Source: an uncultured Candidatus Saccharibacteria bacterium
Lineage (GTDB): Bacteria > Patescibacteriota > Minisyncoccia > Phycocordibacterales > PALSA-1337
Assembly: GCA_964543075.1 (NCBI GenBank)
Contig: CAZIVT010000002.1
Span: forward strand, 3,089-67,088
DNA length: 64,000 nucleotides
Reading direction: 5' to 3'
This document shows, piece after piece, positions 7,420 through 36,606 of this stretch; within the stretch, counting starts at the first letter, position 1, and each line of letters begins with the position of its first letter. The translations under genes were made by a program, and so were the position numbers. The notes under the pieces were generated by a model that saw only the letters and a list, made by a program, of their open reading frames with translations, had not been told where the DNA came from and did not search any database.

Positions 7420-7448
7420 AAGCTCGCCATACAGGCAAACAAACAAGA

Positions 7449-7475
7449 AGGGGCTTGAAGCCTCTTTTTGTTTGT
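7449..7475 (+). terminator. Rho-independent terminator after the copper operon
   Basis: Stem AGGGGC/GCCTCT (one G-U pair), loop TTGAA, followed by TTTTGTTTGTTT. Confidence 0.5.
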
Positions 7476-7491
7476 TTCAATGAGCCACTAT

Positions 7492-11752: not shown

Positions 11753-11992
11753 ATGTAATATTTTCTTAAAGGCAGTGCCACCTTTGTAGCTTTTGACCTT
11801 CTTCTCGAGCATACGAGCCTCTTGTTCAGTGTCGGTCTCACAGTAGCATACCAGTTTCCAAGGACCATTCAACTTGGTAAAAGCACCGCCGGTGCCGCTG
11901 TTGTGCGAGACCAGTCTCTCACTCATGTTTATGGTAGAGCCGACATAATGTTTCCCATTCTTTAGGCTCTTGAGTATATAAACATACGCCAT
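11714..11992 (-). CDS. GIY-YIG nuclease family protein (YhbQ/COG2827-like)
   Basis: MAYVYILKSLKNGKHYVGSTINMSERLVSHNSG...PWKLVCYCETDTEQEARMLEKKVKSYKG is a canonical GIY-YIG pattern. The ORF has no stop of its own, and its last 13 codons are tRNA-Ser sequence with the TAA in the anticodon loop. Confidence 0.8.
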   Translation of the reverse strand: MAYVYILKSLKNGKHYVGSTINMSERLVSHNSGTGGAFTKLNGPWKLVCYCETDTEQEARMLEKKVKSYKGGTAFKKILHGDVAEWSKAAPC

Positions 11993-12061
11993 TCACTTTC
12001 GACCATCCCGCCTTTGGCGGGATAAACTCAGCCACGACCCGCCTTGGCGGGTCACGTCTCC
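11993..12061 (-). pseudogene. Decayed copy of the tRNA-Ser 5' portion (nt 1-26) interrupted by two mini-hairpin insertions
   Basis: The reverse complement reads GGAGACG[TGACCCGCCAAGGCGGGTCG]TGGCTGAG[TTTATCCCGCCAAAGGCGGGA]TGGTCGAAAG. With the brackets removed it equals the first 25-26 nt of the intact tRNA-Ser. Confidence 0.65.
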
Positions 12062-13635: not shown

Positions 13636-14835
13636 ATGAAGACCGTCACTGACAAAGCGCGCATCGAAGAACTCTTGGCGCGCGGCATGCTCGTCGAAGC
13701 ATATCCATCCAAAGCCGAGCTCATGGAGCGGCTCCTCTCAGGCGATCGTATCCGGATCTACTACGGCCTCGATCCGACGCATACCGCCATCCATCTCGGT
13801 CATGCCAAGAACCTTATATTCCTCGAAGAGCTCCGTCAGCTCGGCCATGAGGTCATCGTCCTCTTCGGCGATTTCACCGCCACGATCGGCGATCCGACCG
13901 ACAAGGCCGCCGCTCGTTCTCAGCTCACTGTCGAACAGGTCAAAGAGAACATGAAGACGTGGATCGAGCAGATCACGCCGCTCGTCGATTTCGATGACGC
14001 GGATAATCCCGCGCGCGTCGAGCGCAACTCCTCATGGCTCTCCAAACTCTCATTCGCCGACGTTCTCGATCTCTCTTCCAATTTCACTGTCCAGCAGATG
14101 CTCGAGCGTGATATGTTCGAGAAGCGCATGGAGACCGGTGCGCCTATCCACCTGCATGAGTTCATGTATCCGCTGATGCAGGGATACGACAGCGTGGCGA
14201 TGGATGTGGATGCTGAGCTATGTGGAACCGACCAGATCTTCAACGCTCTAGCCGGACGCACGCTCCTCAAGCGCTACAAGAACAAGGACAAGCTCATCAT
14301 CGCTCTCAACCTGATCGCTAACCCTGCAACCGGCGAGCTGATGTCCAAGTCCAACGGCACCGGCGTGTTCATCGACCAGTCGCCGGCCGATCTATTCGGT
14401 TCGATCATGGCGCTCCCTGATCCGATGATCGAGCCGCTCTTCACGCACTGCACCCGTATCCCGATGTCAGACAAGGAGGGGTTCATGGCCGCCGGGCCGA
14501 GGAAGGCCAAGGCCGCTGTGGCGCTCGATATCGTCAAGCGTCTCCATGGCGAGTCAGCGGCGCTGGCGGCAGAGCAGGCATTCGAGAATACCTTCGCCAA
14601 AGGCGGCGTGCCGGATGATGTGCAGGAGGTCTCCCTGGGAGACGGCGAGCATCTCTCTGATGCGCTCGTCAAAGCAGGCGTTATATCTTCCAAGGCCGAG
14701 TGGCGCCGGCTCATCGATGGCGGCGGCATCCGTACCGAGGACGACGAGAAGATATCCGACCCTCATTTCAAACCGGTCAAGACTGTAGTCCTCAGGGTTG
14801 GCAAACGGAGGTTTGTAAGAATAGTACCGCGCTAG
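13636..14835 (+). CDS. tyrS: Tyrosine--tRNA ligase
   Basis: HIGH motif (DPTHTAIHLGH), KMSKS variant (GELMSKSNG), TyrRS-like core and a C-terminal S4-like domain (LSDALVKAGVISSKAEWRRLIDGGGI). The upstream 234 codons of the long ORF are an Arg-rich alternative frame of lysE. Confidence 0.92.
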   Translation: MKTVTDKARIEELLARGMLVEAYPSKAELMERLLSGDRIRIYYGLDPTHTAIHLGHAKNLIFLEELRQLGHEVIVLFGDFTATIGDPTDKAAARSQLTVEQVKENMKTWIEQITPLVDFDDADNPARVERNSSWLSKLSFADVLDLSSNFTVQQMLERDMFEKRMETGAPIHLHEFMYPLMQGYDSVAMDVDAELCGTDQIFNALAGRTLLKRYKNKDKLIIALNLIANPATGELMSKSNGTGVFIDQSPADLFGSIMALPDPMIEPLFTHCTRIPMSDKEGFMAAGPRKAKAAVALDIVKRLHGESAALAAEQAFENTFAKGGVPDDVQEVSLGDGEHLSDALVKAGVISSKAEWRRLIDGGGIRTEDDEKISDPHFKPVKTVVLRVGKRRFVRIVPR

Positions 14836-14922
14836 TTCAATAGTCAAATAGTACCTAGTCCAATAGTCTCTGCTACCAAATCCAGGGGCAGGGACTATTC
14901 GACTATTGAACTATTTGACTGC
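14836..14922. repeat. Intergenic word-repeat hairpin element H1 (CTACC..GCAG core family)
   Basis: Left arm GTTCAATAGTCAAATAGT... pairs with right arm ...GACTATTGAACTATTTGACT. Central part is TCTCTGCTACCAAATCCAGGGGCAGGG. It lies between the convergent tyrS and comFC genes. Confidence 0.65.
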
Positions 14923-15618
14923 TCAATGCGCCAACGATAATCCTCTGACGTCGGTGAACCCCGCGCGTTTCAATGTCTCGATCGCTTCGTGCATCGTGCT
15001 TCCAGTGGTGATGACGTCATCTATGACGATCAATCGCCGCTTGGTGAGCTCCGGCTCCGCCTCAGTGAGCTTCTCCAGCGTCTTTTCATCTATTGCGAAT
15101 ATCCCTTTTGCATCTTCGACTCGGTGTTTGCGATCTTTCATGGTTTGTCGATCCGCATGATGTGTGCGTATCAGCAGGTTTCTGTCGAATACAAACCGAG
15201 CAGGATCTCTCTCTTGTGCCCATCGCGCTATCTCATCCATCAGTAGCTCACACTGGTTGTACCCGCGCTCGCGTCTCCGCCGCGATGTTATCGGCATAGG
15301 TAGGACGAGTATCGGACAGACGCCGGACGCGGCATCTGTAGATATCTCCTCGAGATCGGAAAATAGCGCATACCCGCCGATTTCGACAGCTTGCGTCGAG
15401 TGTTTGTATTTGATGTTCCAGATGAGCTTGGAGACACGCTCATCCTTGTAGGCGAAGATAGATCGGGTGTCAGGGAGATCCACCGCGAGGCCAGAATAGT
15501 TAGGTGCCGGAGGTAGCTTCTCCAAGGCCTCGCGTGGTGACAGCGAAAAGATCTCCTTTTCAGCAGGAGAAAGAGGGAAGAGCGCGTCGAGGATGGTTTG
15601 GTAGAGTATCTTGAGCAT
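14923..15618 (-). CDS. comFC: ComF-family phosphoribosyltransferase-like competence protein
   Basis: PRTase motif RRLIVIDDVITTGSTMHEAIETLKRAG and an N-terminal ComF-like region. Confidence 0.8.
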   Translation of the reverse strand: MLKILYQTILDALFPLSPAEKEIFSLSPREALEKLPPAPNYSGLAVDLPDTRSIFAYKDERVSKLIWNIKYKHSTQAVEIGGYALFSDLEEISTDAASGVCPILVLPMPITSRRRRERGYNQCELLMDEIARWAQERDPARFVFDRNLLIRTHHADRQTMKDRKHRVEDAKGIFAIDEKTLEKLTEAEPELTKRRLIVIDDVITTGSTMHEAIETLKRAGFTDVRGLSLAH

Positions 15619-15639
15619 GAGTTCGGCATACTATGATAC

Positions 15640-15770
15640 CTCCACAGACGCCAATTGGCCTAATCTCTGATTAACCTAGTTGGCCTAAGAAACGCTTGTG
15701 AGACTATCTAGTATAGGTAGTCAGGAGGTTTTAGGACAATTAGGAATTAGAATAATTAGGGTAATTTCGG
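15640..15770. repeat. Intergenic word-repeat hairpin element H5 (CTAATT-word family)
   Basis: CCAATTGGCCTAATCTCTGATTAACCTAGTTGGCCTAAG ... TTTTAGGACAATTAGGAATTAGAATAATTAGGGTAATT. The arms are related to those of the element at 35728..35814. Confidence 0.6.
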
Positions 15771-15783
15771 TATACTATATCCT

Positions 15784-16881
15784 ATGGCCCTCTTTTCCGG
15801 ACTTTTCAAAAAGGACTCCAGTGTGCTCGGCATAGACATCGGATCTTCCGCCATCAAGGTCATCCAGATCAAGAAGAAGCGCGGTCGCGCAGTTCTGGAG
15901 ACCTATGGTGAGCTGGCGCTCGGTCCGTACGCTGGCATCGAAGTCGGCCGCGCGGCGAGCGTGCAGGCTGACAAGATCGTCGAAGCCATCAAGGACATCC
16001 TTCGTGAGTCAAAGACCACGACCGGGCTCTGCGGCGTCGCTTTGCCGCTCTCTTCGAGCTTGATCTCATTCATCTCCGTGCCGCCTGTCCCAGAAAAGCA
16101 GATGAGCGAGGTCATCTCTCTCGAAGCCCGCAAATACATCCCAGTTCCTCTCAATGAAGTCCTGCTCGATTGGTCAGTGATCCCCAAGGAGGACTCCTAT
16201 GTCAGCGAAGACGAATCCGCCAAGCAGGAGAAGCGGGGGAGCGACGTCCTCGTGGTCGCTATCCACAATCAGTACATCAATGACTACCAGTCCATCATCG
16301 GTGGGAGCGGTCTCCAGCCGAGCTTCTACGAGATAGAGATCTTCAGTTCCATACGCGCAGTCGTCGACCAGGGTATCCAGACAGTGATGATCATCGATAT
16401 GGGAGCGCGGTCGACCAAGCTCTATATCGTCGAGCGCGGCATCTTGCGCGCGTCTCATATCATCAACAAGGGCAGCCAAGACATCACGCTGGCTCTCTCC
16501 AAGGCCATGAGCATCACAGTGACCGATGCTGAGACCATGAAGCGCACCTATGGCCTCAAAGGAGGCCCAGAATACAAAGAGCTGACCGAGATCATCACCG
16601 TCAATCTCGATTATATCTTCTATGAGGCCAACGCGACGCTCCTCAACTACCAGAAAAAGTTCAATAAGAACGTCAGTAAAGTCATCCTGACCGGAGGGGG
16701 GGTGCTCCTCAAGGGTTTCACCGATTTGGCGCGCATCGGCTTTCAGACTGAGGTAGTCTACGCGGACCCATTCAGCAAGCTCGAGACGCCAGCCTTCTTG
16801 GCTGACGAGTTCGCTCAGGCTGGGCCGGAGTTCGCGGTGGCTATCGGAGTCGCGCTCCGCAGACTCGGAGAGATGGAGTGA
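15784..16881 (+). CDS. pilM: Type IV pilus assembly protein PilM (actin-like ATPase fold)
   Basis: N-terminus VLGIDIGSSAIKVIQIKK, length and position match PilM. TATACT-N7-ATG lies upstream. Confidence 0.85.
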   Translation: MALFSGLFKKDSSVLGIDIGSSAIKVIQIKKKRGRAVLETYGELALGPYAGIEVGRAASVQADKIVEAIKDILRESKTTTGLCGVALPLSSSLISFISVPPVPEKQMSEVISLEARKYIPVPLNEVLLDWSVIPKEDSYVSEDESAKQEKRGSDVLVVAIHNQYINDYQSIIGGSGLQPSFYEIEIFSSIRAVVDQGIQTVMIIDMGARSTKLYIVERGILRASHIINKGSQDITLALSKAMSITVTDAETMKRTYGLKGGPEYKELTEIITVNLDYIFYEANATLLNYQKKFNKNVSKVILTGGGVLLKGFTDLARIGFQTEVVYADPFSKLETPAFLADEFAQAGPEFAVAIGVALRRLGEME

Positions 16882-16961
16882 CGAGTAGTCAGTCCTTCGT
16901 TATACACACCTCACACTGGCTCTACTCTGGTATAATCATATAGAAACCATCTTACGGAGAT

Positions 16962-17615
16962 ATGGAGACCAAATTCCAGACATCATTCATACCGAAGAAA
17001 CCTCTCACGCTTGCCGGAAGCGGCTTGGGAGGGATCTCTGTCCCTCAGCAGCCCAAGCGACGAGGGACGAGCGTCTTCATGTCCATCGCGGTAATCATCT
17101 TCATCATCTCTCTCGGCGCGGTTGCAGGAGTGCACTTCTGGAAGTCTGTCCTCATCTCGGCTCAGGATAGCTACAAGGTCCAGTTGGCCCAGCGGGAAAA
17201 GCAGTTCAACCTGGCACTCATCGAAGAGCTCAAGCGTCAAGATGTCAAGATCAGCTTGGCTGACCAATTGCTCCGCAATCACCTCGCCATATCCAATATC
17301 TTCGGCATCATCGGCAGCTTCACCATTGAGAACGTCAGGTATCTGTCGCTCGACTTGTCCGCTCCCGCGAACAGCACAGAAGACGTCAAGATCTCGATGA
17401 AAGGGCAGGGATCCAACTTGAGCGCTATCGCGTTCCAGTCGAAAGTCCTCGCGACGCTCGAAGAATACGGCCTCCGTACGATCGTCAGGAATCCCATCCT
17501 GTCCGATCCAGTCCTGGACGCCTCGGGCGCGGTATCGTTTGGATTCACTGCTACGATCAACTCAGGAGCGCTCTCATACGAAAAGAGCGTGACTTCGAGC
17601 GAGTCCGCACCATAG
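16962..17615 (+). CDS. PilN-like bitopic pilus assembly protein
   Basis: Single TM (SVFMSIAVIIFIISLGAVAGV) followed by a coiled-coil and a periplasmic-type domain, directly after pilM. The GGAG 4 nt upstream is a rare SD-like motif in this window. Confidence 0.5.
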   Translation: METKFQTSFIPKKPLTLAGSGLGGISVPQQPKRRGTSVFMSIAVIIFIISLGAVAGVHFWKSVLISAQDSYKVQLAQREKQFNLALIEELKRQDVKISLADQLLRNHLAISNIFGIIGSFTIENVRYLSLDLSAPANSTEDVKISMKGQGSNLSAIAFQSKVLATLEEYGLRTIVRNPILSDPVLDASGAVSFGFTATINSGALSYEKSVTSSESAP

Positions 17616-17622
17616 CAATCCC

Positions 17623-18195
17623 ATGAACAAGAACATCACCGCACTCATCCTGATCATATTGGCCGCTGGCGTGTACTTCACGTATACGCAGGGCAAGCTC
17701 GATGAGCTCAAGTCCATCCGAGAGGTCAACAGCGAGTACTCATCAGCTATCGCCAATGCCGATCAGCTCATCAAGGATCGCGATCGTGTCCTCACTCAGT
17801 ACAATGACATCGCCGCTGATGATCGCGACAGGCTCGACAAGATGATCCCTGACACAGTCGACAACATACGTCTGATCATCGACCTCAATAGCGTCGCTTT
17901 GGATCATGGATTCTCTCTCCGCAACATCAAAGCCGCGGCATCGAGCGACAAGGAGGGAGCTCCGCCGCGCCAGGTACAGTCTGGTTCGCGCGACATAGTC
18001 ATAGCCAATCCTACCCTCGACACGGTGACGGTCACGTTCAGCGTGACCGCGCCATACCAGCAGTTCATCGAGTTCATGCGTTCTCTGGAAGCCAACTTGC
18101 GCGTGATGGATCTGACGCATCTGACCATAGCGGCCAACAGCTCAGGGACGTATGACTTTGGCGTCGAGTTCAAGACCTATTGGCTCCGCGAATAA
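17623..18195 (+). CDS. PilO-like bitopic pilus assembly protein
   Basis: N-terminal TM, coiled-coil (GKLDELKSIREVNSEY...) and a C-terminal alpha/beta domain. Position after pilM/pilN-like. Confidence 0.5.
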   Translation: MNKNITALILIILAAGVYFTYTQGKLDELKSIREVNSEYSSAIANADQLIKDRDRVLTQYNDIAADDRDRLDKMIPDTVDNIRLIIDLNSVALDHGFSLRNIKAAASSDKEGAPPRQVQSGSRDIVIANPTLDTVTVTFSVTAPYQQFIEFMRSLEANLRVMDLTHLTIAANSSGTYDFGVEFKTYWLRE

Positions 18196-18199
18196 CATC

Positions 18200-18532
18200 A
18201 TGAAGAACAAAACCTCATCAAAGAAGACCCTCGTGAGCTCGGTTATCATCATCGTCGCTGTGGCGATCGCGTATTTCTTCTATATGGGCAACAAGGCCCC
18301 CTCCGGACAGTCTCTACTCGAGACGCAGGTGACGCCTGAGGCCAACGCGGCCAGCTCGCGCATACTGGCTCTGCTCAATCAGATCAGATCGCTCAAGATA
18401 GACACGGAGATATTCGATGATCCGGTATATCAGACGCTCATCGATTATTCGGTCGCCATACCAGATGTCCCTGTCGGCAGGCTCAATCCGTTCGCTCCTA
18501 TACCAGGAGTGCCGATAGAAGGGTCAAATTGA
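18200..18532 (+). CDS. Small membrane-anchored protein of the pilus operon
   Basis: Start moved to MKNKTSSKKTLVSSVIIIVAVAIAYFF. No recognisable family. Confidence 0.4.
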   Translation: MKNKTSSKKTLVSSVIIIVAVAIAYFFYMGNKAPSGQSLLETQVTPEANAASSRILALLNQIRSLKIDTEIFDDPVYQTLIDYSVAIPDVPVGRLNPFAPIPGVPIEGSN

Positions 18533-18616
18533 ACGTTGAAAATTGAACGTTGAAGATTAATCCCTCGGGACTAATAGCCGGAATTTTCAATTTTCAATTT
18601 TCAATTTTCAATGCAA
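18527..18616. repeat. Intergenic word-repeat hairpin element H8
   Basis: Left arm is (AATTGAACGTTGAA)x2 and right arm is (ATTTTCA)x4. They are partly complementary (TTGAAAATTGAA versus TTCAATTTTCAA). Confidence 0.6.
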
Positions 18617-18617
18617 C

Positions 18618-20360
18618 ATGTCTGTCCTCGATATCCTACTCCAGAAGAATATCATCACCAAAGATGACGTCCGCGACATCCGCAAGGCGACATCCGCAGG
18701 CAGTCCGCTCGAGGACGCGCTGATCGCCCGTGGGGTCAAACCAGAAGACGTCATCGCGGCCCGCGGTGAATTCCTCAATATGCCCGTCCGTGCGGTAGCC
18801 GAGCAATCGGTCCCTTTTGAAGTGCTCGAGTACATCCCCGAGGAGTCGGCCGTCCACTACAAGTTCGCGCCGCTCGGTCTCGTCGACGGGACGCTCGAAG
18901 TCGGCATCGTCGATCCTGACAACATGGAGGCACGCGACGCGCTGACCTTCTTGGTGGCGAAAAAGAACATCCCATACAAGCTATTCCTCATCACTATCGA
19001 TGACTTCAAGAAAGTGATCGAGATGTACAAAGGCATCACCGGAGAGGTGTCCAAAGCGCTCTCGGAGCTCGAGAGCGAGCTCTCTGTCGATATCTCTGAT
19101 GGCATCAAGAAAGAGGACCTCGCGTCAGAGAAAGGTGGCGGCAAAGGCTCGAGCAAAGCCGAGGATGAGACGCTGATCATCGAGGATGCTCCTGTGGTCA
19201 AGATCGTCGCTACTATCGTCCGGTATGCCGTCGAAGGGGAGGCCTCAGACGTCCACATCGAGCATATGCGCGACAAGATCCGCGTGCGCTTCCGCGTCGA
19301 TGGTGTGCTCAATACGTCGCTCATCTTGCCGCCGCAGGTGCACTCGGCTGTCGTGGCTCGCATCAAAGTCCTCTCCAACATGCGCCTCGACGAGAAGCGC
19401 AAGCCTCAGGACGGACGCTTCTCGGCACGCATAGACGGACGTCGTGTCGATTTTCGTGTCTCTACATTCCCTTCGTATTATGGCGAGAAAGTCGAGATGC
19501 GTATCCTCGACCAAGCAAAGGGTATCCGTACTCTCGACGATATGGGCATGTCCGACAAGAATCTCTCTATGCTCCGTGAGGCGATCAACAAGCCATACGG
19601 CATGATCCTCATCACGGGCCCGACCGGTTCTGGAAAATCCACTACGCTCTACTCTATCCTCGGCGAGGTCGACCGTGAGAGCTACAACGTCCTATCGCTC
19701 GAAGATCCGGTCGAATATCAGATGGAAGGCGTCAGCCAATCGCAGGTTCGTCCGGAGATCGGATATGATTTCAGCTCTGGATTGCGCACGACGCTCCGTC
19801 AGGACCCCGATATCATCATGGTCGGTGAGATCCGCGACAAAGAGACCGCCCAGCTGGCGGTGCAGGCGGCTCTGACCGGTCACTTGGTCTTCTCGACTCT
19901 GCACACCAATGACGCCGCCGGCGTCATACCGCGTCTCATCGATATGGGTGTCGACCCGTATCTGATCGCGCCGACGCTCATCCTAGCAGTCGCGCAACGC
20001 CTCGTAGGACTCTTGCCAAAGGGCGGGGGAGAGCCCATGGCGGTCGATGGCAGTCTCAAAGCGATGATAGACAAGCAGTTCGCTGATCTTCCTGAACAAT
20101 ACAGGCAGGACATCCCATTCACAGATACTGTCAACAAGATCAAACCTACTCCCGAGTGTCCCAAAGGGACGAGGGGCCGTATGGCAGTCTTCGAGATGTT
20201 CACTATGGACAAGGATATCGAGAAAGTCATCCTGACCAATCCGACCGAGACAGAGATCTTCAAGATCGCGCGCGCAAAAGGCATGACTACCCTCAAGGAA
20301 GATGCCATCATCAAGGCGTTCGGCAAAGTGATACCGATAGAGGAGGTCAATAAGCTGTGA
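18618..20360 (+). CDS. pilB: Type IV pilus assembly ATPase PilB (GspE family)
   Basis: T2SSE N-domain, Walker A GPTGSGKST, Asp box, Walker B and His box (LVFSTLHTN). Confidence 0.92.
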   Translation: MSVLDILLQKNIITKDDVRDIRKATSAGSPLEDALIARGVKPEDVIAARGEFLNMPVRAVAEQSVPFEVLEYIPEESAVHYKFAPLGLVDGTLEVGIVDPDNMEARDALTFLVAKKNIPYKLFLITIDDFKKVIEMYKGITGEVSKALSELESELSVDISDGIKKEDLASEKGGGKGSSKAEDETLIIEDAPVVKIVATIVRYAVEGEASDVHIEHMRDKIRVRFRVDGVLNTSLILPPQVHSAVVARIKVLSNMRLDEKRKPQDGRFSARIDGRRVDFRVSTFPSYYGEKVEMRILDQAKGIRTLDDMGMSDKNLSMLREAINKPYGMILITGPTGSGKSTTLYSILGEVDRESYNVLSLEDPVEYQMEGVSQSQVRPEIGYDFSSGLRTTLRQDPDIIMVGEIRDKETAQLAVQAALTGHLVFSTLHTNDAAGVIPRLIDMGVDPYLIAPTLILAVAQRLVGLLPKGGGEPMAVDGSLKAMIDKQFADLPEQYRQDIPFTDTVNKIKPTPECPKGTRGRMAVFEMFTMDKDIEKVILTNPTETEIFKIARAKGMTTLKEDAIIKAFGKVIPIEEVNKL

Positions 20361-20373
20361 TATAATAATACCC

Positions 20374-20799
20374 ATGACTGAACAAACCGTAACCACTGCT
20401 TCCTCTGCGCCGGCTTCGGATGCAAAGAAAGTCCTCCTCGTCGATGACGACAAGTTCCTGCTCGATATGTATGCCATCAAGTTCAGCAAGGCTGGCTACG
20501 AAGTCAAGACGGCAGATGCCACGGACGCGGCCCTCAAGATGCTCCGCGACGGATATATCCCCGATGTGATGCTCGCTGACATCGTCATGCCTGGTCTCGA
20601 TGGTCTCGAGCTGGTCGCAAGTGTCAAGAAGGAGAACTTGATCCCCCAAGCCAAGGTCATCATGTTGACCAATCAGGGCTCTTCCGATGACGTCTCCCGA
20701 GCCAAGAAGCTCAACGTGGATGGCTATATCGTCAAAGCGACGACCATACCGTCGGAGGTGCTCGGTGAAGTGGAGAAGATTATCAGCAGTAAACCGTAA
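20374..20799 (+). CDS. Stand-alone response-regulator receiver protein
   Basis: VLLVDDD...DVMLADIVMPGLDG...VIMLTNQG...GYIVKA are CheY-like receiver residues. It lies between pilB and pilT. Confidence 0.85.
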   Translation: MTEQTVTTASSAPASDAKKVLLVDDDKFLLDMYAIKFSKAGYEVKTADATDAALKMLRDGYIPDVMLADIVMPGLDGLELVASVKKENLIPQAKVIMLTNQGSSDDVSRAKKLNVDGYIVKATTIPSEVLGEVEKIISSKP

Positions 20800-20810
20800 A
20801 GTCAGCCGCG

Positions 20811-20880
20811 TGGTACCTAGTTAGTTCTCGCTACTAGATGCAGAAACTATGTAACTAGGTGCTATGCAACTAAGTAACTA
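20811..20880. repeat. Intergenic word-repeat hairpin element H2 (TCGCTACTAGAT..GCAGAAACTATGTAACT family)
   Basis: The core at 20828..20873 is about 90 percent identical by eye to 33190..33240. Arms GTACCTAGTTAG / CTAACTAGGTGC pair. Confidence 0.7.
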
Positions 20881-20886
20881 CCGTAT

Positions 20887-21945
20887 ATGGACTATAAACA
20901 AGAAATCCAAGAACTCGTCGACCTGGTCTTCAAGGAAGGCGCATCAGACCTGCATCTCTCGACTGGCCGCACGCCGATCATCCGCGTCTCCAGCAATCTG
21001 ATACCGCTCGTCAAGAAACCCACGCTATCTGACGCAGATATGAAGGGCTTCCTCAAGGTATTCCTCAACGAAGAGAGCATCGAGATCTTCCACAGAGAGA
21101 AAGATGTCGACTTTTCATACGGCCTAGACCAGGCGCGTTTCCGTGGCAATGCCTACTATCGTCAAGGCGCTATCTCCATCGCGCTTCGTCTCATCCCCAA
21201 GGCCATACGGACGCTTTCGGAGCTCAACCTGCCTCCTATCCTCGAGACATTCACGAGGAAGCCCCAGGGATTCTTCCTCGTGGTAGGACCGATCGGCCAA
21301 GGCAAGACCACTACGCTGGCTACGCTGGTCGAGATCATCAATCAGACGAGGTCAGAGCACATCATGACCATCGAGGATCCCATCGAGTATCTTTTTGATT
21401 CCAAGAAGTCCATCATCGATCAGCGCGAGGTGCGTTTCGATACGCCTGATTTCCAGACAGCTCTGGTGGCCATGTTCCGTCAGGATATCGATGTCTGTAT
21501 GGTGGGCGAGATGCGAGACAATACCACTGTCGCTACCGCCGTGACCGCCGCTGAGACAGGTCACCTGATCTTCTCGACACTGCATACCAACAATGCCGCC
21601 CAGACGATCAACCGCATCATCGACTCGTTCCCGCCGAGCCAGCAGGATCAGATCCGTATCCAGCTGGCAGGATCCCTGTCAGGCATATTCTCTCAGCGCC
21701 TCATCCCGCGCATCTCTGGCGGACAGATCCCGGCGTATGAGCTTCTCATCAACAACACCGCCGTCGCCAACCTGATTCGCGAGAAGCGCATCCATGAGAT
21801 CAATACCGTCATCGAGACGAGCTCACAGGAGGGGATGATCGACATGAACCGCTCGCTCGCCGAGCTCGCGCGATCCGGAGAGATCACCGTCGAGAACGCG
21901 TATCTCAATTCGCTCAATCCCAAGACGCTCGAACGCATGATGTGA
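20887..21945 (+). CDS. pilT: Twitching-motility retraction ATPase PilT
   Basis: Walker A GPIGQGKTT, and IFSTLHTNNAAQTINRIID is typical of PilT. 352 aa. Confidence 0.92.
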   Translation: MDYKQEIQELVDLVFKEGASDLHLSTGRTPIIRVSSNLIPLVKKPTLSDADMKGFLKVFLNEESIEIFHREKDVDFSYGLDQARFRGNAYYRQGAISIALRLIPKAIRTLSELNLPPILETFTRKPQGFFLVVGPIGQGKTTTLATLVEIINQTRSEHIMTIEDPIEYLFDSKKSIIDQREVRFDTPDFQTALVAMFRQDIDVCMVGEMRDNTTVATAVTAAETGHLIFSTLHTNNAAQTINRIIDSFPPSQQDQIRIQLAGSLSGIFSQRLIPRISGGQIPAYELLINNTAVANLIREKRIHEINTVIETSSQEGMIDMNRSLAELARSGEITVENAYLNSLNPKTLERMM

Positions 21946-21946
21946 T

Positions 21947-22037
21947 GTCAGTCAGATAGTCCATCGGTACATCGTCCAGTAGTCCTCGCTACCGGAATCA
22001 GCAGTAGAGATTATTCGACTGGGAACTATTGAACTGT
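21947..22037. repeat. Intergenic word-repeat hairpin element H3
   Basis: TCCTCGCTACCGGAATCAGCAGTAGAGATTATTCGACTGGGAACTATTGAAC is related to the H1 core (GCTACC..AATC.AG..GCAG..ATTCGACT..GAACTATT). Confidence 0.6.
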
Positions 22038-22065
22038 GATACATGCTCGCGCTATAATTACTCTC

Positions 22066-23277
22066 ATGCTTTTCAACTATGAAGCCATAGACGCGACCGG
22101 AGGCAAGAAGAACGGCTCTATAGATGCCATCAATCTAGACATCGCCATCGCTTCGCTCCAGCGACGCGGGCTCGTACTCACCAATATCAAAGAGGCCGAT
22201 GCCCCGAGCGGCATCCTCTCCGCCAATATCTCCTGGTTCGACCGTGTCTCAGTCAAGGACGTTGTCATCCTGTCCCGCCAGCTGGCGACTCTCTTTGAGG
22301 CGCAGGTGTCGGCGCTCCGCATCTTCCGCTTGCTCGGATCAGAGTCTGAAAATCACGTGCTAGCCAAGAAGCTCACCGAGATCGCCGATGATCTCCAAGC
22401 GGGAAGCTCGATATCCACAGCCCTCTCCAAACATCCCAAGGTATTCAGCGATTTCTATGTCAGCATGGTCAAAGCAGGTGAGGAATCAGGCAAGCTCGAC
22501 GACACCTTCCAGTATCTGGCCGACTATCTCGATCGCACCTATGAGCTCACGTCTCGCGTCCGCGGAGCGCTCATCTATCCGGCGTTCGTGGTCGTGACCT
22601 TCGTCGTGGTCATGATCCTCATGTTCACCATGGTCATCCCCAAGATCAGTGGCATCCTCGTCGATTCGGGCGTGGAGATACCGGTCTACACGCGCGTGAT
22701 CCTCGGACTCAGCAATTTCCTCGTAGAATACGGCTTCATCATCCTCGGCGTCGTCCTCATCGGCGGCTTTTTCCTCATCAGATTCATCCGCACGCCGGTG
22801 GGCAAGGCCGCGTTCGATCGATTCAAGCTCAATATCCCATATGTCAGCGGACTCTATCGCAAGCTCTACCTCTCGCGCATGGCCGACAACATGGCGACCA
22901 TGCTCGGTTCAGGTATCCCGATGGTCCGCGCGCTCGAGCTCACGTCCAATGTCATCAACAACAGCATCTACCAAGGCATCCTGACGGGGTCAGTGGAGAT
23001 GGTCAAGGGTGGTAAGACGCTCTCCGAGTCGCTCTCCGTCGATCCTGACGCTATCCCCGGTATCATGACGCAGATGATGAAGGTGGGTGAGGAGTCCGGC
23101 GAGCTCGGCAGTATCCTCAAGACCGTGGCCAAGTTCTACAGCCGCGAAGTGACCACAGCCGTCGACTCGCTCGTCTCGCTCATCGAGCCGCTCATGATCG
23201 TGCTCCTCGGCGGGGGAGTCGCCGTCCTTCTGGCGTCGGTGCTCATCCCGATCTACAACATCGCCAGCGCGCAGTAG
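22066..23277 (+). CDS. pilC: Type IV pilus platform protein PilC (GspF family)
   Basis: Start moved to MLFNYEAIDATGGKK (TATAAT-N7-ATG). Two GspF repeats and three TM segments. Confidence 0.9.
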   Translation: MLFNYEAIDATGGKKNGSIDAINLDIAIASLQRRGLVLTNIKEADAPSGILSANISWFDRVSVKDVVILSRQLATLFEAQVSALRIFRLLGSESENHVLAKKLTEIADDLQAGSSISTALSKHPKVFSDFYVSMVKAGEESGKLDDTFQYLADYLDRTYELTSRVRGALIYPAFVVVTFVVVMILMFTMVIPKISGILVDSGVEIPVYTRVILGLSNFLVEYGFIILGVVLIGGFFLIRFIRTPVGKAAFDRFKLNIPYVSGLYRKLYLSRMADNMATMLGSGIPMVRALELTSNVINNSIYQGILTGSVEMVKGGKTLSESLSVDPDAIPGIMTQMMKVGEESGELGSILKTVAKFYSREVTTAVDSLVSLIEPLMIVLLGGGVAVLLASVLIPIYNIASAQ

Positions 23278-23281
23278 CAGG

Positions 23282-23325
23282 AACACGCAGGGTAGACCTG
23301 CGTACGCAGGTCTACCCTGCGTGTT
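23282..23325. repeat. REP element copy 1 (44-bp perfect palindrome)
   Basis: AACACGCAGGGTAGACCTGCGTACGCAGGTCTACCCTGCGTGTT, 4 nt after the pilC stop. Confidence 0.9.
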
Positions 23326-23447
23326 ATCCACACCCCTATATTGTGCCGGTTTTGCGGATGGTATAATTATCCCTAACAAACCTTAATTTGAGAAAGGGAT
23401 GTTGTTACATATAAATTATCAATAGTTATCACGTAAATTTCATAATC

Positions 23448-23975
23448 ATGAAAAAGTTTACACAGAAAGGCTTCACCCTCATCGAACTCCTCGTGGTGAT
23501 CGCCATTATCGGTATCTTGTCGTCTGTTGTGTTGGTCTCCCTCAATAGTGCTAGGAGCAAGGGTGGGGATGCAGCTATACAAGGGAATTTGAATGCAATT
23601 AGAACTCAAGCTGAACTCTGGGCAAATAATCAGTCGACACCAACATATGCTACAACGGCTTTTGCGGCGGCGGCATGTCCAGGTACTACACAAACAGGAA
23701 ATATTCTTAATGATTCAACCATAATAAGCGCGATTAATGGTGCAAGTACTCAGGCAGGGGGTAGTGATAACAGTGACACCCGTTGCGCGGTCCGTTCAAA
23801 TGGATGGGCAATAGCCTCTCAACTTAAATCAGGTGGTACTGCAGGAGACTCAACACCAGATGCATGGTGTGTGGATAGCAGCGGAATCGCGAAACCCTAC
23901 ACGTATACATCTGGACAGACGATTGCGAATACGATCACTGATAACTCTTCTGGAAATACAGCATCCTGTAATTAG
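23448..23975 (+). CDS. pilA: Type IV major pilin
   Basis: Prepilin leader MKKFTQKG followed by FTLIELLVVIAIIGIL, and C-terminal Cys residues. Confidence 0.85.
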   Translation: MKKFTQKGFTLIELLVVIAIIGILSSVVLVSLNSARSKGGDAAIQGNLNAIRTQAELWANNQSTPTYATTAFAAAACPGTTQTGNILNDSTIISAINGASTQAGGSDNSDTRCAVRSNGWAIASQLKSGGTAGDSTPDAWCVDSSGIAKPYTYTSGQTIANTITDNSSGNTASCN

Positions 23976-24003
23976 TTGAGATTGTTCAATTTATCGAAAC
24001 TTC

Positions 24004-24030
24004 CCACCCCGCCCCAAGCGGGGTGGTTTC
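24004..24030 (+). terminator. Hairpin terminator after pilA
   Basis: CCACCCCGC-CCCAA-GCGGGGTGG followed by TTT. Confidence 0.55.
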
Positions 24031-24044
24031 GCGTTATGCATGAT

Positions 24045-24082
24045 CCGCAGGGTAGACCTGCGTACGCAGGTCTACCCTGCGG
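24045..24082. repeat. REP element copy 2 (38-bp perfect palindrome)
   Basis: CCGCAGGGTAGACCTGCGTACGCAGGTCTACCCTGCGG. It overlaps the last codons and the stop of the RAYT ORF. Confidence 0.9.
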
Positions 24083-24659
24083 GGACTGCGAGGATTCGAT
24101 AGGTGATGATGCTTGTTTGACTTCGGGACTCCCCCAAGTAGTCCTTGAAACTCGAGTACTCATATGATTTTGAATACTCTATAGCCTCGCCCAAATACTC
24201 CGTTTTGGCAGTTTTCGTCATGTCTGGTTGGTCTATTCCATATGGATTGAGATGAACGTATTGGACCAGATATCGCAGATACTCATCGGAGTCTACATGT
24301 TTTGATCTATACTGGCCTTGGAATATAGTGCCCGAATGGTCGTATTTCTTGTTGTAGTACATGGCATATGAGGTGCAGAGCCTCTGCATGAACTTTTCCA
24401 CCCCTCTTTCTGTCGTCTCGCGCATTCCGATATGAAAATGATTGGGCATGAGGCAGTAGCAGAATATATCCGTGAGCGTATCACGTTCAAACCGAAACAT
24501 ATCTGTCGGCTTTATTGTACGCAGGTCTACCCTGCGGGTGTGGTTATTCATGACGTACAGTAGTTGCAAAAACCTCATATAATCGGATGTGTCATGGAAA
24601 ATAGGCGCTTTGTGAGCACCTCGGTTATATACATGGTAGTGTTCTCCGATGATATGCAT
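24072..24659 (-). CDS. REP-associated tyrosine transposase (RAYT, IS200/IS605 Y1 TnpA-like)
   Basis: YHVYNRG, HUH motif CLMPNHFHI, and catalytic-Tyr region YLRYLVQYVHLNP. It is flanked by REP palindromes. Confidence 0.85.
   Translation of the reverse strand: MHIIGEHYHVYNRGAHKAPIFHDTSDYMRFLQLLYVMNNHTRRVDLRTIKPTDMFRFERDTLTDIFCYCLMPNHFHIGMRETTERGVEKFMQRLCTSYAMYYNKKYDHSGTIFQGQYRSKHVDSDEYLRYLVQYVHLNPYGIDQPDMTKTAKTEYLGEAIEYSKSYEYSSFKDYLGESRSQTSIITYRILAVPAG
24518..24537. repeat. Half REP inside the RAYT coding sequence
   Basis: TACGCAGGTCTACCCTGCGG, translated on the minus strand as TRRVDLRT. Confidence 0.7.
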
Positions 24660-24668
24660 GATCTGCAG

Positions 24669-24690
24669 TCCGCAGGGTAGACCTGCGTAC
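24669..24690. repeat. Half REP upstream of the RAYT start
   Basis: TCCGCAGGGTAGACCTGCGTAC is the left half only, 10 nt upstream of the RAYT ATG. Confidence 0.75.
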
Positions 24691-24801
24691 AGTACGATAT
24701 CAAAAGCAGATAAAATCCAGATAAAATAAGTATAAAGTTTTACTAAAGTTTTCCCCCTATATCTGATGATTGCTTGTCATACGTCGTGGTATAATTCATT
24801 T

Positions 24802-25347
24802 ATGAATAAAAATTCCCTCCGCAGGGTAGACCTGCGTACGCAGGTCTACCCTGCGGAAAAAGCTTTTACTATCATCGAGCTTCTCGTCGTGATCGCCATC
24901 ATCGCGCTCTTGACCGGTATCATCATGACCAACCTGACTTCCGCGAAGTCTCGTGCCAGGGATGCCAAGAGGATATCGGATATGGGGCAGATCGCTCTGG
25001 CGCTCGAGCTTTTCTATGATAGGTGTGGATCGTATCCTATAGCAGAGGGGTATCTTAGTCTTTCAGAAGACGCCAATGGATATTGCCCTAGTGGTGTGAC
25101 ATTTGAAGATTTTATGTCTGTTATTCCTTCCAATCCAGCTCCATATGATCTACCATATTACTACTATAATGCCCCTAGTGATGAGGTTGATTTCAAGGCA
25201 AAGAAATACCTGCTACGTGTCACCTTAGAAGGGAGCAACTCGGTATTGGATGATGATGTCGATAGTATACCAATAGCGGATTGGCCTGATATAGCCAGTA
25301 ACTTTTGTTCTGATGCCTCGAACGCCTACTGCATAATCGGAAATTAG
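24802..25347 (+). CDS. Type IV pilin-like protein with a REP-encoded leader segment
   Basis: MNKNSLRRVDLRTQVYPAEKA then FTIIELLVVIAIIALL. TATAAT-N6-ATG at 24790-24804. There is no alternative start between the REP and the FTIIE motif. Confidence 0.8.
   Translation: MNKNSLRRVDLRTQVYPAEKAFTIIELLVVIAIIALLTGIIMTNLTSAKSRARDAKRISDMGQIALALELFYDRCGSYPIAEGYLSLSEDANGYCPSGVTFEDFMSVIPSNPAPYDLPYYYYNAPSDEVDFKAKKYLLRVTLEGSNSVLDDDVDSIPIADWPDIASNFCSDASNAYCIIGN
24818..24857. repeat. REP element copy 3 (40-bp perfect palindrome) inside a prepilin leader
   Basis: TCCGCAGGGTAGACCTGCGTACGCAGGTCTACCCTGCGGA. Confidence 0.9.
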
Positions 25348-25348
25348 C

Positions 25349-26155
25349 TTGACTACTGTAACTTATCTCCTCCTCCCGTTCATATTCGGTGCCATAGTCG
25401 GCAGTTTTCTCAATGTCGTTGCCTTACGATTCGGGACCGGAAAAGGGATCGGAGGACGTTCGGGTTGTATGAATTGCGGCAAGAAGCTCGGTTGGCGCGA
25501 GCTGATACCGATCGTGAGCTTCTTTTTTCAGAAGGGTCGATGCAGGGAGTGCGGGAGCAAGATATCGTGGCAGTATCCGCTGGTAGAATTCATGACGGGC
25601 GCTATGTTCGCCTTGATCTTCTTGACCTTCCCGCCGTTCGATGTCGTGTCATCGGTGATGACGGTACTCCATATCATTGCGGCTTGTCTGCTGCTGGTTA
25701 TCTGTGTCTATGACATCAAGCACAAGATCATACCCGACGTGTTCTCATATGCTTTTTCTGGTATCGCACTCATCTCTCTCTTCGTCGGCGGATGGTCCTG
25801 GTGGCATGTTCCGAGCTGGTGGCAGATCATCGCCGGACCGCTCGCCGCTGTGCCGTTTGCGCTGATCTGGCTCGTCTCTCGTGGCAGATGGATGGGCCTC
25901 GGCGACGCCAAGCTGATGCTCGGCATCGGCTGGTTCCTCGGGATATCAGGGGCTGTCAATGCCATCATCTTGGCTTTCTGGATAGCCGCCGCAGTCAGCA
26001 TCATATGGATGCTCGTCACCTATAGGCGCTTCAAACGGGGAATGGAGATACCGTTCGGTCCCTACCTCATCGTGGGTATGTACGCCGTGCTCTTATTCGG
26101 GATCCAGGCGATAGATACGGGGATGCTCATGGAGCTTTTTACTTGGTATAATTGA
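25349..26155 (+). CDS. pilD: Prepilin peptidase / N-methyltransferase (A24 family)
   Basis: TTG start. LNVVALRF, Cys-pair zinc motif CMNCGKKL...CRECGSKI, and DVFSY / GLGDAKLM aspartyl motifs. Confidence 0.9.
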   Translation: MTTVTYLLLPFIFGAIVGSFLNVVALRFGTGKGIGGRSGCMNCGKKLGWRELIPIVSFFFQKGRCRECGSKISWQYPLVEFMTGAMFALIFLTFPPFDVVSSVMTVLHIIAACLLLVICVYDIKHKIIPDVFSYAFSGIALISLFVGGWSWWHVPSWWQIIAGPLAAVPFALIWLVSRGRWMGLGDAKLMLGIGWFLGISGAVNAIILAFWIAAAVSIIWMLVTYRRFKRGMEIPFGPYLIVGMYAVLLFGIQAIDTGMLMELFTWYN

Positions 26156-26159
26156 CCAT

Positions 26160-26765
26160 ATGCATAGTCCAAAAGAACAGCATGCTTTGAGATCAGTACA
26201 GTGTCCTCGACATGAACAGAAGAGTCGCGCGGGATTCACACTGGTCGAGCTCATAGTATCCGTGGCGATATTTGCCGTGATGACGGCCTTGGTAGTGGCG
26301 AAATATGGCAACTTCAATAACAACATACTGTTCACCAATCTCGCGTATGACGTCGCTGGCATCATCAGGACCGCCCAGTCATATGGACTGAGCGTGAGGA
26401 GCGCGGACGATGTGGGCAATTTCCAATCCGCCTACGGTGTGCATATATCTACCGACCAGCCCAAGACCATCATCTTCTTCGCTGATACGGATGAGGACGG
26501 CATCTATGGCGGCTCGAGCGAGGACATCAGCTTTTATGCGCTCAAGCAAGGGGCATATATCGTCGGATATTGCTTTGTGCCCTCATGTCAGGGATATGCC
26601 AATGGAGACCTCAATATCACGTTCAAGAGGCCTGATCCGGATGCGAGGTTGTATGATAGCGAGTTCCTCATCGGGAATTATGCCGAGATAGTCATCCAGT
26701 CACCCCAAGGAGATACGCGCGCGATAGTCGTCCGTGGCAACGGACAGATATCGATCAAAGACTAG
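26160..26765 (+). CDS. Minor pilin / pseudopilin (FimT/GspH-like)
   Basis: Long leader ending SRAG, then FTLVELIVSVAIFAVM. TATAAT-N7-ATG. Confidence 0.75.
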   Translation: MHSPKEQHALRSVQCPRHEQKSRAGFTLVELIVSVAIFAVMTALVVAKYGNFNNNILFTNLAYDVAGIIRTAQSYGLSVRSADDVGNFQSAYGVHISTDQPKTIIFFADTDEDGIYGGSSEDISFYALKQGAYIVGYCFVPSCQGYANGDLNITFKRPDPDARLYDSEFLIGNYAEIVIQSPQGDTRAIVVRGNGQISIKD

Positions 26766-26830
26766 CGAAGTGACCGAGAGGCCGCTGTGATGTTAGGCGT
26801 TCGGGATAGTTACTTGGTATAATCATGACG

Positions 26831-27484: not shown

Positions 27485-27488
27485 TCTC

Positions 27489-28558: not shown

Positions 28559-28563
28559 CGCAG

Positions 28564-28590
28564 GACGCAGGTCTACCCTGCGTACGCAGG
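28564..28590. repeat. Partial/permuted REP
   Basis: ACGCAGGTCTACCCTGCGTACGCAGGT is the right REP half followed by the start of another right half, 6 nt after the pilX-like stop. Confidence 0.7.
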
Positions 28591-33163: not shown

Positions 33164-33250
33164 TACTTAGCTACTTGGGTACATAGTTTTCGCTACTAGA
33201 TCTAGATGCAGAAACTATGTAACTGGGTACTATGTAACTATGTAACTATT
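33164..33250. repeat. Intergenic word-repeat hairpin element H4 (same family as H2)
   Basis: TCGCTACTAGATCTAGATGCAGAAACTATGTAACTGGGTACTATGTAACTA. It differs from H2 mainly by a CTAGAT duplication. Confidence 0.7.
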
Positions 33251-33882: not shown

Positions 33883-33885
33883 TAC

Positions 33886-33988
33886 AGATATACGAATGCA
33901 TGCAAATCTACGAATAACTACGAATAGCGCAATCGCCATTCGCAGTTATTCGCATCATTCGAATAATTCGTATATTCGTATCGTGCGT
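33886..33988. repeat. Intergenic word-repeat hairpin element H9 (CGAATA-word family)
   Basis: Long imperfect inverted repeat ...CTACGAATAACTACGAATAGCGC AATC GCCATTCGCAGTTATTCGCATC.... A single-arm relative lies at 31574..31609. Confidence 0.6.
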
Positions 33989-33992
33989 ACGT

Positions 33993-35727: not shown

Positions 35728-35814
35728 AATTACCCTAATTTCTAATTGATCTAATTTCTAAACAATGACCAATTGTAGGTTACTCAGAAATTAGGCCAAT
35801 TAGGTCAATTCTTG
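35728..35814. repeat. Intergenic word-repeat hairpin element H6 (CTAATT-word family)
   Basis: CTAATTGATCTAATTTCTA pairs with CAGAAATTAGGCCAATTAG. The left arm GAATTACCCTAATTTCTAATT matches the reverse complement of the H5 right arm. Confidence 0.65.
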
Positions 35815-35827
35815 TATAATGACCTCC

Positions 35828-36508: not shown

Positions 36509-36510
36509 AT

Positions 36511-36598
36511 AACTCAAAACTCAAAGCTCAAAAGTCAAAAATAGACCAAATCGAAAAATCAGCGTTAGTTTTGCGTTTTGATTTTTGAGCTTTGAGTT
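36511..36598. repeat. Intergenic word-repeat hairpin element H7 (AAACTC/TCAAAA-word family)
   Basis: Left arm AACTCAAAGCTCAAAAGTCAAAA (36518..36540) pairs with right arm GTTTTGATTTTTGAGCTTTGAGTT (36575..36598). Confidence 0.7.
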
Positions 36599-36606
36599 GT
36601 CATTCT

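Follow-up and report, generated by a model that had tools for sequence, protein, structure and literature searches.

A four-copy family of palindromic, word-built repeats in intergenic spacers of a patescibacterial genome, and its possible origin as a dispersed repeat

The 64-kb stretch of DNA analyzed here as a whole (contig CAZIVT010000002.1, positions 3,089 to 67,088; the window from here on) has a GC content of 52.9% and carries a type IV pilus cluster (PilM, PilB, a response regulator, PilT, PilC and pilins) together with genes for a class I aminoacyl-tRNA synthetase, a ComF-like protein, GatA and CTP synthase, among others. Four of its spacers contain elements, designated H1 to H4, of 80–90 nt and 32–47% GC, which an earlier inspection of the letters (the sequence-only reading) had described as intergenic cassettes with a conserved core and word-built arms. 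All four are present at the positions given for them and read as described; their limits and those of their cores are as follows:

14833..14922, plus strand: H1, the best-preserved copy (93.8 bits with the family covariance model; folding z = −7.4)
14872..14891, plus strand: H1 core, GCTAC-CAAATCCAGGG-GCAG, made up of the closing pairs of the apical stem and the loop
20808..20886, plus strand: H2, between the response-regulator gene (stop codon 20797–20799) and pilT (ATG 20887); folding z = −2.2
20830..20843, plus strand: H2 core, GCTAC-TAGAT-GCAG
21946..22035, plus strand: H3, a decayed copy directly 3′ of the pilT stop codon (21943–21945); folding z = −0.6
21988..22004, plus strand: H3 core, GCTAC-CGGAATCA-GCAG
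33164..33250, plus strand: H4, directly 3′ of the gatA stop codon (33161–33163; 98.2 bits with the covariance model; folding z = −3.6)
33192..33211, plus strand: H4 core, GCTAC-TAGATCTAGAT-GCAG

H1 spans the entire 87-nt spacer between two convergent stop codons: the TAG of the upstream trpS/tyrS-like gene (14833–14835) lies inside its 5′ arm, and the comF-like gene on the other side, encoded on the minus strand, stops at 14923–14925. Its arms have the form (TAGTnnnn)x5 and (nnnnACTA)x3–4, with TAGT at 14833, 14841, 14849, 14856 and 14864 (spacings of 8, 8, 7 and 8 nt) and ACTA at 14894, 14902 and 14910 (spacings of 8 and 8 nt). H3 is homologous to H1 across ~80 nt and has lost a significant hairpin. 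In H2 the 5′ arm is short and the 3′ ACTAnnnn array is longer, reaching 6 nt before the pilT ATG, whereas in its sister copy H4 the loop has a CTAGAT duplication and the 3′ arm contains a 4.8-copy AACTATGT array; H4 is followed by TATAAT (33253–33258) and an ATG (33268). The arms are indeed built from words, as first proposed, since Tandem Repeats Finder (TRF) returned period-8 arrays in both arms of H1 and in the 3′ arm of H4; the placement beside stop codons was likewise borne out, with H1 filling its convergent spacer and H2–H4 beginning 0–11 nt past a stop codon. The sequence invariant among the four copies is GCTAC...GCAG, which in the RNAalifold consensus is the top of an 11-bp apical stem (TAGTyyyyGC / GCAGrrACTA) plus its loop; this stem is common to H1–H4, with three pairs altered on both sides between the two subgroups defined below. 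The degenerate core originally put forward, (T/C)C(T/G)CTAC-N-GCAG, holds for H2, H3 and H4, but H1 is one base off and reads TCTGCTAC, and the same pattern has two chance matches inside open reading frames (ORFs).

Local alignments evaluated against 1,000 dinucleotide shuffles showed that H1–H4 share a common ancestry. H1 and H3 aligned with a score of 47 (null 13.9 ± 2.3; z = 14.3; 0/1,000 shuffles), which confirms them as a second subgroup beside H2 and H4, for which the score was 78 (null 16.6 ± 2.9; z = 21; 0/1,000 shuffles). By blastn, the latter two are 91.5% identical over 47 nt (E = 2e-11), very close to the ~90% initially estimated, and the feature said to distinguish them, the CTAGAT duplication in the loop of H4, is real. 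The four cross-subgroup pairs reached z values of 3.2–5.6 (1–13 of the 1,000 shuffles), all of them in the same register across the core, and the data therefore support one family with two subgroups, the link between subgroups being weaker than those within them. One could instead suppose that AT-rich spacer hairpins of independent origin came to resemble each other in their words, as short words such as AATTAG, ACGAATA and TTTTCAA turn up repeatedly in hairpins of distant genomes among which no homology could be detected. Nevertheless, H1/H3 and H2/H4 align far beyond shuffles over 47–82 nt that include the non-repetitive loop, and the cross-subgroup pairs keep a single core register; we consider convergence very unlikely, above all for the two within-subgroup pairs.

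Folding was evaluated with energy z-scores against shuffles; a count of pairs in the best unbranched stem did not separate real spacers from shuffles and was abandoned. The claim of long imperfect hairpins stood for H1 (−42.9 kcal/mol) and H4, the only copies clearly better than shuffles; it was marginal for H2, for which 5 of 200 shuffles folded equally well, and failed for H3, which was indistinguishable from them. Additionally, the 5′ arms of H2 and H4 pair with different words of their near-identical 3′ arrays, and these two copies differ by register shifts rather than by clean covariation. With the marginal fold of H2 and the decay of H3 kept in mind, the four copies fall within the generic class of dispersed intergenic stem-loop repeats, that is, at least three homologous, unlinked and foldable intergenic copies.

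The nearest PilT proteins among 185,579 species genomes come from metagenome-assembled genomes (MAGs) of Patescibacteria/Paceibacteria ("Parcubacteria", near "Taylorbacteria"), with 82–86% identity, while the exact protein was found only on one NCBI contig of 68,386 nt and in two Logan assemblies, those of SRR13355621 and SRR13355622. H2 and H3 are base-for-base identical in these two independent Logan assemblies, indicating that the H elements are not an assembly artefact. A search with PilT homologues for closer relatives led to a protein of 87% identity at best, from a locus where the H elements are absent. For comparison we used 84 related Paceibacteria loci (labelled L003 and so on), totalling 1.31 Mb.

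We found no further member of the family in any of the collections searched. A scan of the whole window against Rfam at the gathering threshold returned only seven tRNAs, and E-value scans (E up to 10) over H1–H3 and H4 gave a top match of 22 bits against the 44.5 required; this check, suggested in the sequence-only reading, thus matched no known family. An nhmmer profile of the four sequences retrieved from the window the four copies and their palindromic reverse-strand echoes only, and nothing from the 84 related loci; likewise, covariance model R1, built for the family and run on the window with filters off, detected no fifth copy there and none in the 1.31 Mb. The degenerate core pattern had two matches in JGI metagenome contigs, both armless and attributable to chance, for which a few matches are expected, and none in IMG/VR, where a second pattern gave five, all by chance and in viral DNA. 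The family is therefore absent from every relative examined and, as far as the searched collections show, confined to its source genome.

These results bear on a possible role as small-RNA genes or as conserved structured RNAs with cis-regulatory function. In favor of it, the elements are compact and structured, occur between genes in several copies and share a conserved loop. No conservation or covariation was found beyond the window, the outcome named beforehand as the one that would count against such RNAs. There was also no Rfam match, the elements have no promoter of their own, H3 is decayed, H2 and H4 are separated by the register shifts described above, and the flanking genes (an aminoacyl-tRNA synthetase gene, pilT, pilC and gatA) are functionally unrelated. 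We accordingly give this explanation hardly any weight.

The orthologous sites, which are those of other species, are empty or differently filled. In ~80 relatives, the spacers between the response-regulator gene and pilT and between pilT and pilC are mostly of 5–30 nt and free of hairpins. Some long pilT-flanking spacers hold unrelated hairpins, made of words in L004 and L088 (AAGTTCATAAAG), L031 (CTAATTTC), L033 (CCTACAA) and L073 (GCCTAG), and in L005 a 40-bp stem that is not made of words. The convergent trpS/comF arrangement is also conserved, with a spacer of 0–10 nt in L004, L005, L025 and others, and with unrelated long hairpins in L006, L009 and L016. PilT has 352 amino acids (aa) in nearly all orthologues and TrpS ends at its usual ...GKRRFV(K/R)IV.. 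position, from which it follows that the H copies start at native stop codons and did not truncate any gene. The tiny or differently filled orthologous spacers suggest that insertion or expansion in once tiny spacers gave rise to the H copies in this lineage; their adjacency to stop codons is then no evidence of function, because whatever inserts into a spacer of 0–30 nt must abut a stop.

Spacers of the relatives harbor other elements as well. In L086 (1602–2141; 87% PilT identity), a 114-aa gene of the 23S_rRNA_IVP family (PF05635) separates pilT from pilC; a 50-nt inverted repeat of CAGGTAAC-type words encloses it, so that the whole is a word-repeat hairpin whose loop holds a gene. Several relatives contain spacer elements that resemble miniature inverted-repeat transposable elements (MITEs) and are unlike the word-repeat type, having 110–190 nt, near-perfect inverted ends of 30–45 nt, unrelated interiors and folding z values of −10 to −12:

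L005 11060–11214; L019 4810–4967; L003 4153–4347; L006 3910–4061 and 9395–9556; L016 4221–4407; L041 10359–10597: MITE-like spacer elements

A small GC hairpin, (A)TCCCCGCCTTCGCGGGGATGAC(A), recurs in spacers of several Paceibacteria, 3′ of pilT (L003, L015, L016 and L032), with a variant in the window at 11990–12060, 29404–29463 and 34750–34775, and possibly represents a terminator or repeat conserved throughout the clade.

The interpretation that we favor, with a probability of about one half, is that H1–H4 constitute a non-coding, lineage-specific palindromic dispersed repeat, with four copies that fall into two subfamilies, of the kind represented by repetitive extragenic palindromes (REP), enterobacterial repetitive intergenic consensus (ERIC) sequences, Correia elements, Rickettsia palindromic elements (RPE) or MITEs. 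Among the three options offered in the sequence-only reading, that of a mobile-type element thus comes first, because the family is confined to its genome, the corresponding spacers of relatives are tiny or hold unrelated hairpins, and H3 is unfolded; the small-RNA gene is dropped, and the elements may or may not also act in processing or insulation at the RNA level. Copies would arise by duplicative spread into spacers, each with the apical stem-loop TAGTyyyyGC - TAC...loop - GCAGrrACTA and arms of TAGTnnnn (5′) and nnnnACTA (3′) words. The arms would then lengthen by tandem duplication of words of ~8 nt, as suggested by the CTAGAT duplication in the loop of H4, by the greater length of the 3′ arrays compared with the 5′ arms, and by the different words with which the 5′ arms of H2 and H4 pair, and template switching or palindrome correction might subsequently copy them in mirror image onto the other side of the dyad. 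Since each of the four copies comes after a gene on the plus strand, they are expected in transcripts as 3′-untranslated region (UTR) or intercistronic RNA, where the intact ones (H1, H4 and, less clearly, H2) would fold as stems of 23–33 bp. To judge from the known substrate requirements of RNase III, such stems would more plausibly be RNase III or exonuclease-barrier substrates than intrinsic terminators, and any consequence at the RNA level appears to be without sign of selection. A further argument for a dispersed repeat is that other short repeats of the same genome have demonstrably been copied and pasted, also into coding DNA, as detailed below.

Several observations nevertheless weigh against a dispersed repeat. 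Target-site duplications are not significant: the best flanking direct repeats have 5–6 nt, ACCGTA at H2 and TGTGAT at H3, and since flank repeats of at least 6 nt occur in ~24% of random control windows we discarded both as target-site duplications. Terminal inverted repeats distinct from the hairpin itself could not be defined in the four copies, and neither a transposase nor a REP-associated tyrosine transposase (RAYT) is among the 25 listed of the 71 Pfam families matched by the 67 ORFs of the window. The copies seen are only four, all within 64 kb, and they share their orientation, each 3′ of a plus-strand gene, although this last point is weak (p ~0.125 under random orientation, in a region where most genes occupy the plus strand). 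Additionally, in a clade-wide comparison, spacers with a folding z of −4 or lower make up 22% of the tandem and convergent spacers and 8% of the divergent ones (Fisher p = 0.003), and the strongly folded H1 hairpin, placed exactly between convergent genes, has the look expected of a selected bidirectional 3′-end element.

These last points, in turn, favor an explanation in which the long hairpins are dedicated, non-canonical terminators or insulators that stop or process read-through between genes having their own leaderless promoters, the resemblance among them being due to the re-use of a module. In line with it, each of the four comes directly 3′ of a gene; after H3 and H4 there is a TATAAT, placed 7 nt ahead of the next ATG; −10 boxes across the window are most frequent at −13; and the long pilT–pilC spacers of relatives usually pair a hairpin with a TATAAT. 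The sense-strand excess of G·U over A·C oppositions in 60 structured tandem spacers of the clade (129 vs. 95; p = 0.027) is a slight additional support, although this set, as well as the other class-level statistics, takes in ordinary terminators. The H stems themselves, in a transition-symmetric alignment of the sense strand, show 19 G·T (G·U) vs. 16 A·C oppositions, that is, no strand bias; the comparison of sense with antisense folding energies is confounded, for unstructured spacers carry the same bias.

The search for terminators proper agreed with the initial remark that the elements are not classical ones. Intrinsic terminators have a short GC-rich stem of ~5–14 bp, a loop of 3–8 nt and a U-tract within ~2 nt, a combination found in none of H1–H4: a scan of positions 14500–34400 for a hairpin followed by a T-run yielded 23 terminator-like sites and none in the four elements, and inspection of the sequences revealed no T-runs after their stems. 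The genome does have classical hairpin-plus-T terminators elsewhere (7420–7491 and about 56130). Furthermore, the promoter scan recognized no −10 box downstream of H2, so transcription of pilT probably passes through this element, a point against its being an efficient terminator. A dedicated terminator is also at odds with the unfolded state of H3, with the lack of a hairpin at these sites in most relatives and with the presence of a hairpin of the same class (15640–15775) in a divergent, promoter-to-promoter spacer. On balance, we see this explanation as unlikely, although it accounts well for the position of H1.

The best match of the promoter scan in 20 kb was the following:

22029..22058, plus strand: promoter-like site, TTGAAC-18-TATAAT

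Its −35 hexamer coincides with the final word in the 3′ arm of H3, and its −10 hexamer ends 7 nt before the pilC ATG (22066), which suggests that the pilC mRNA is leaderless. The decayed H3 is thus predicted to supply now the −35 hexamer of a leaderless pilC promoter, and a copy can apparently decay without consequence. The −10-near-start pattern is repeated before pilC in relatives. In the window, −10-like hexamers peak 13 nt upstream of start codons (between −14 and −11 in 9 of 56 genes, vs. ~0.3 per other position), and TATAAT-like hexamers occur upstream of starts, for example those at 15784, 20374, 22066, 26160, 33268, 48169, 57729, 61429 and 62680, without a Shine-Dalgarno sequence; many genes of the window are therefore probably leaderless.

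The coincidence at H3 also speaks for a role at the DNA level, in which the 8-nt word arrays would be binding arrays, −35 or UP-like promoter modules, or cruciform insulators, and the hairpin would be secondary. The 3′ arrays are, moreover, longer than the 5′ arms and extend to the start region of the next gene, the stems are symmetric as DNA, without G·U bias, and one hairpin of the class lies between divergent promoters. Conversely, H1 is between convergent genes and hence has no downstream promoter, the arrays of H2 and H4 offer no acceptable −35 at the right spacing, and the words are wholly different between hairpins of one genome, so no single binding protein fits them; besides, by DNA geometry, a period of 8 bp does not place successive sites on one face of the helix. 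Such a role seems to us even less probable than that of a terminator or insulator.

In contrast to the common pattern before starts, the major pilin gene is preceded by a rare leadered 5′ region that is conserved across these genomes, with a DnaA-box-like GTTATCCACA, then GCTATAAT and then a common leader, CTAACAAACCTTATTGTTTAGAAAAGGGG:

Window 23318–23447; L083 3022–3261; L086 3354–3525; L087 3901–4047: conserved pilin 5′ region

The favored reading as a dispersed repeat leads to the question of how the family relates to other short repeats of the genome. With a strict detector, defined by exact 6-mers repeated at 5–12 nt on one arm and their complements repeated on the other arm, we identified 18 word-repeat hairpins in 1.38 Mb and none in composition-matched shuffles. 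Word-repeat hairpins are thus a real class in the clade, and the H elements are one family within a clade-wide habit. Those of the window that do not belong to the H family include:

18525..18617: word-repeat hairpin, AAATTGA / AATTTTC words (x4.4), upstream of pilB
33883..33990: word-repeat hairpin, CTACGAATA / TATTCGTAT words, with a solo array of the same words at 31576–31617
35728..35818: word-repeat hairpin, CTAATTT / AATTAGG words
36509..36600: word-repeat hairpin, AACTCAA / AGTTTTG words

The words differ from hairpin to hairpin (AATTAGG, TTTTCAA, ACGAATA and CTCAAAA) and are arranged in tandem units of 7–9 nt. Several arms have a second copy elsewhere in the window. One arm of the hairpin at 35728..35818 is 92% complementary to positions 15653–15678, within the divergent-spacer hairpin mentioned above, and the two AATTAGG copies lie in opposite orientation. 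Between the solo ACGAATA array, which precedes gatA, and an arm of the hairpin situated 2.3 kb downstream, complementarity amounts to 81%. The 5′ arm at 36511–36542 is 96.9% identical over 32 nt to positions 55159–55190, inside the CTP synthase ORF, at a site that we take to be an interdomain linker of this enzyme. Likewise, positions 29396–29435, inside a 756-aa ORF (28609–30879), are 95% identical to 34740–34779, in the spacer after a tRNA-Thr gene. In gatA, word arrays at 31847–31880 (period 8) and 32465–32492 (period 7) translate as insertions of 11–13 residues with respect to solved GatA structures (PDB 3h0l), and in-frame word arrays or small CCCGCC..GGCGGG hairpins also occur in the CTP synthase gene (55157–55188) and in ORF 28609–30879 (29391–29463 and 30424–30459). 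By nhmmer, the other word hairpins showed no homology to hairpins of distant genomes, though words are shared. Literature searches on hairpins, MITEs or terminators in Patescibacteria returned nothing relevant, and no description of the word-repeat class was found in the searchable literature.

A more ambitious version of these relationships would be that H1–H4 are a local family of undescribed, clade-wide "word-repeat palindromes" in Paceibacteria, in which arrays of 7–9 nt are mirrored into hairpins, spread to spacers and, in frame, to surface loops and linkers of enzymes (gatA, pyrG), and are recurrently co-opted, among leaderless promoters, as a boundary module providing stops in all frames, a hairpin and −35 boxes. 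We advance this scheme tentatively and think it rather doubtful as a whole.

Repeats of yet other types occur in the window. A GC-rich perfect palindrome of 36–40 nt, CGCAGGGTAGACCTGCGTACGCAGGTCTACCCTGCG, is present five times in a 5-kb pilin cluster (23285–23324, 24045–24084, 24819–24858, 27527–27566 and 28565–28600), and its inverted half-sites at 24513–24537 and 24670–24694 bracket 132 nt around the start of a minus-strand gene (24072–24659). The palindrome and its half-sites could be an invertible or recombination site; an ORF of the Resolvase family is also present in the window. An ORF of 1,276 aa (44332–48162), located downstream of the pilus genes, contains an internal duplication of ~1.14 kb (44584–46820; 75–91% identity), corresponding to a repeated domain block.

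On its own, the H family is one more small palindromic repeat family, without demonstrated function. Genomes of the Candidate Phyla Radiation have ~1 Mb and are regarded as streamlined; despite this view, the 64 kb of the window hold at least six short dispersed repeat families and around ten spacer hairpins with arms of tandem 7–9-nt words, and similar words are also translated inside conserved enzymes. We therefore see in the phenomenon at the level of the class (word palindromes, in-frame arrays, and boundaries consisting of a hairpin plus a leaderless promoter) a more interesting lead than in the four-copy family. If the class is both real and mobile, it bears on the turnover of non-coding DNA in reduced genomes and on the origin of gene boundaries made of a hairpin and a leaderless promoter, as well as on the annotation of MAGs, since ORF starts and protein "insertions" would be affected.

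Comparison with known systems places the H elements near several groups of repeats. Some candidates were discarded on anatomy, including CRISPR, retrons and iterons. The ends of H1–H4 have neither the RYYYAAC nor the GTTRRRY core of integron attC sites, on either strand, and their flanks are housekeeping genes. Tandem interspaced guide RNA (TIGR) arrays consist of tandem units with box C/box D motifs and dual spacers, beside a Tas (Nop-domain) gene (PMC12045711), whereas the H copies are single and dispersed and contain no RUGAUGA or CUGA boxes. Intrinsic terminators share with H the position of the hairpin directly after a stop codon, as well as its occurrence between convergent genes in the case of H1, but the H stems are 2–3 times longer, AT-rich, interrupted and devoid of a U-tract. 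The intervening sequences (IVS) of 23S rRNA genes, whose extended stems are cleaved by RNase III, are likewise AT-rich extended hairpins, of ~90–110 nt, sporadic and belonging to several unrelated families, and L086 carries its 23S_rRNA_IVP-family gene between pilT and pilC; the H elements, however, are not in rRNA and contain no ORF. As for MITEs, the orthologous sites of other species are empty or differently filled, but the H copies lack a significant target-site duplication and no parent insertion sequence was seen.

The resemblance is closest to the classical palindromic repeats. REP sequences and the bacterial interspersed mosaic elements (BIMEs) that they form, associated with RAYTs in Proteobacteria, are, like H, short imperfect palindromes in multiple copies, intergenic, mostly 3′ of genes and organized in lineage-specific families, and they are transcribed into 3′-UTR hairpins able to block exonucleases, as the H elements would also be. 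However, REPs have 20–40 nt, are GC-rich, carry GTAG/CTAC at the stem base, frequently occur in pairs as BIMEs and have a linked RAYT gene, whereas the H elements have 80–90 nt, are AT-rich, show CTAC in the apical loop and have arms of tandem 8-nt words, and thus do not have the anatomy of a REP; RAYT (Y1_Tnp) is, as said, not among the listed Pfam matches. ERIC, also called intergenic repeat units (IRU), and Correia elements, or Neisseria miniature insertion sequences (NEMIS), are imperfect palindromes of ~100–150 nt, transcribed, intergenic and sporadic at orthologous sites, as H is. Correia hairpins are cleaved by RNase III and are able to generate promoters, a parallel to the −35 hexamer apparently supplied by H3, but they have terminal inverted repeats of 26 bp, a TA duplication and an integration host factor (IHF) site, none of which is evident in H, and there is no sequence similarity. 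RPE, finally, are small palindromic repeats of a reduced genome found both in spacers and in frame within genes, which finds a parallel here in the repeat families shared by spacers and ORFs and in the word arrays in the gatA and pyrG loops. Nevertheless, the H family was found in spacers only, the coding copies of this genome are short word arrays rather than whole palindromes, and there is no sequence relationship. The H elements are, in sum, most like ERIC, Correia or REP-type repeats and the wider class is like RPE, while by sequence or defining anatomy they are members of none of these groups.

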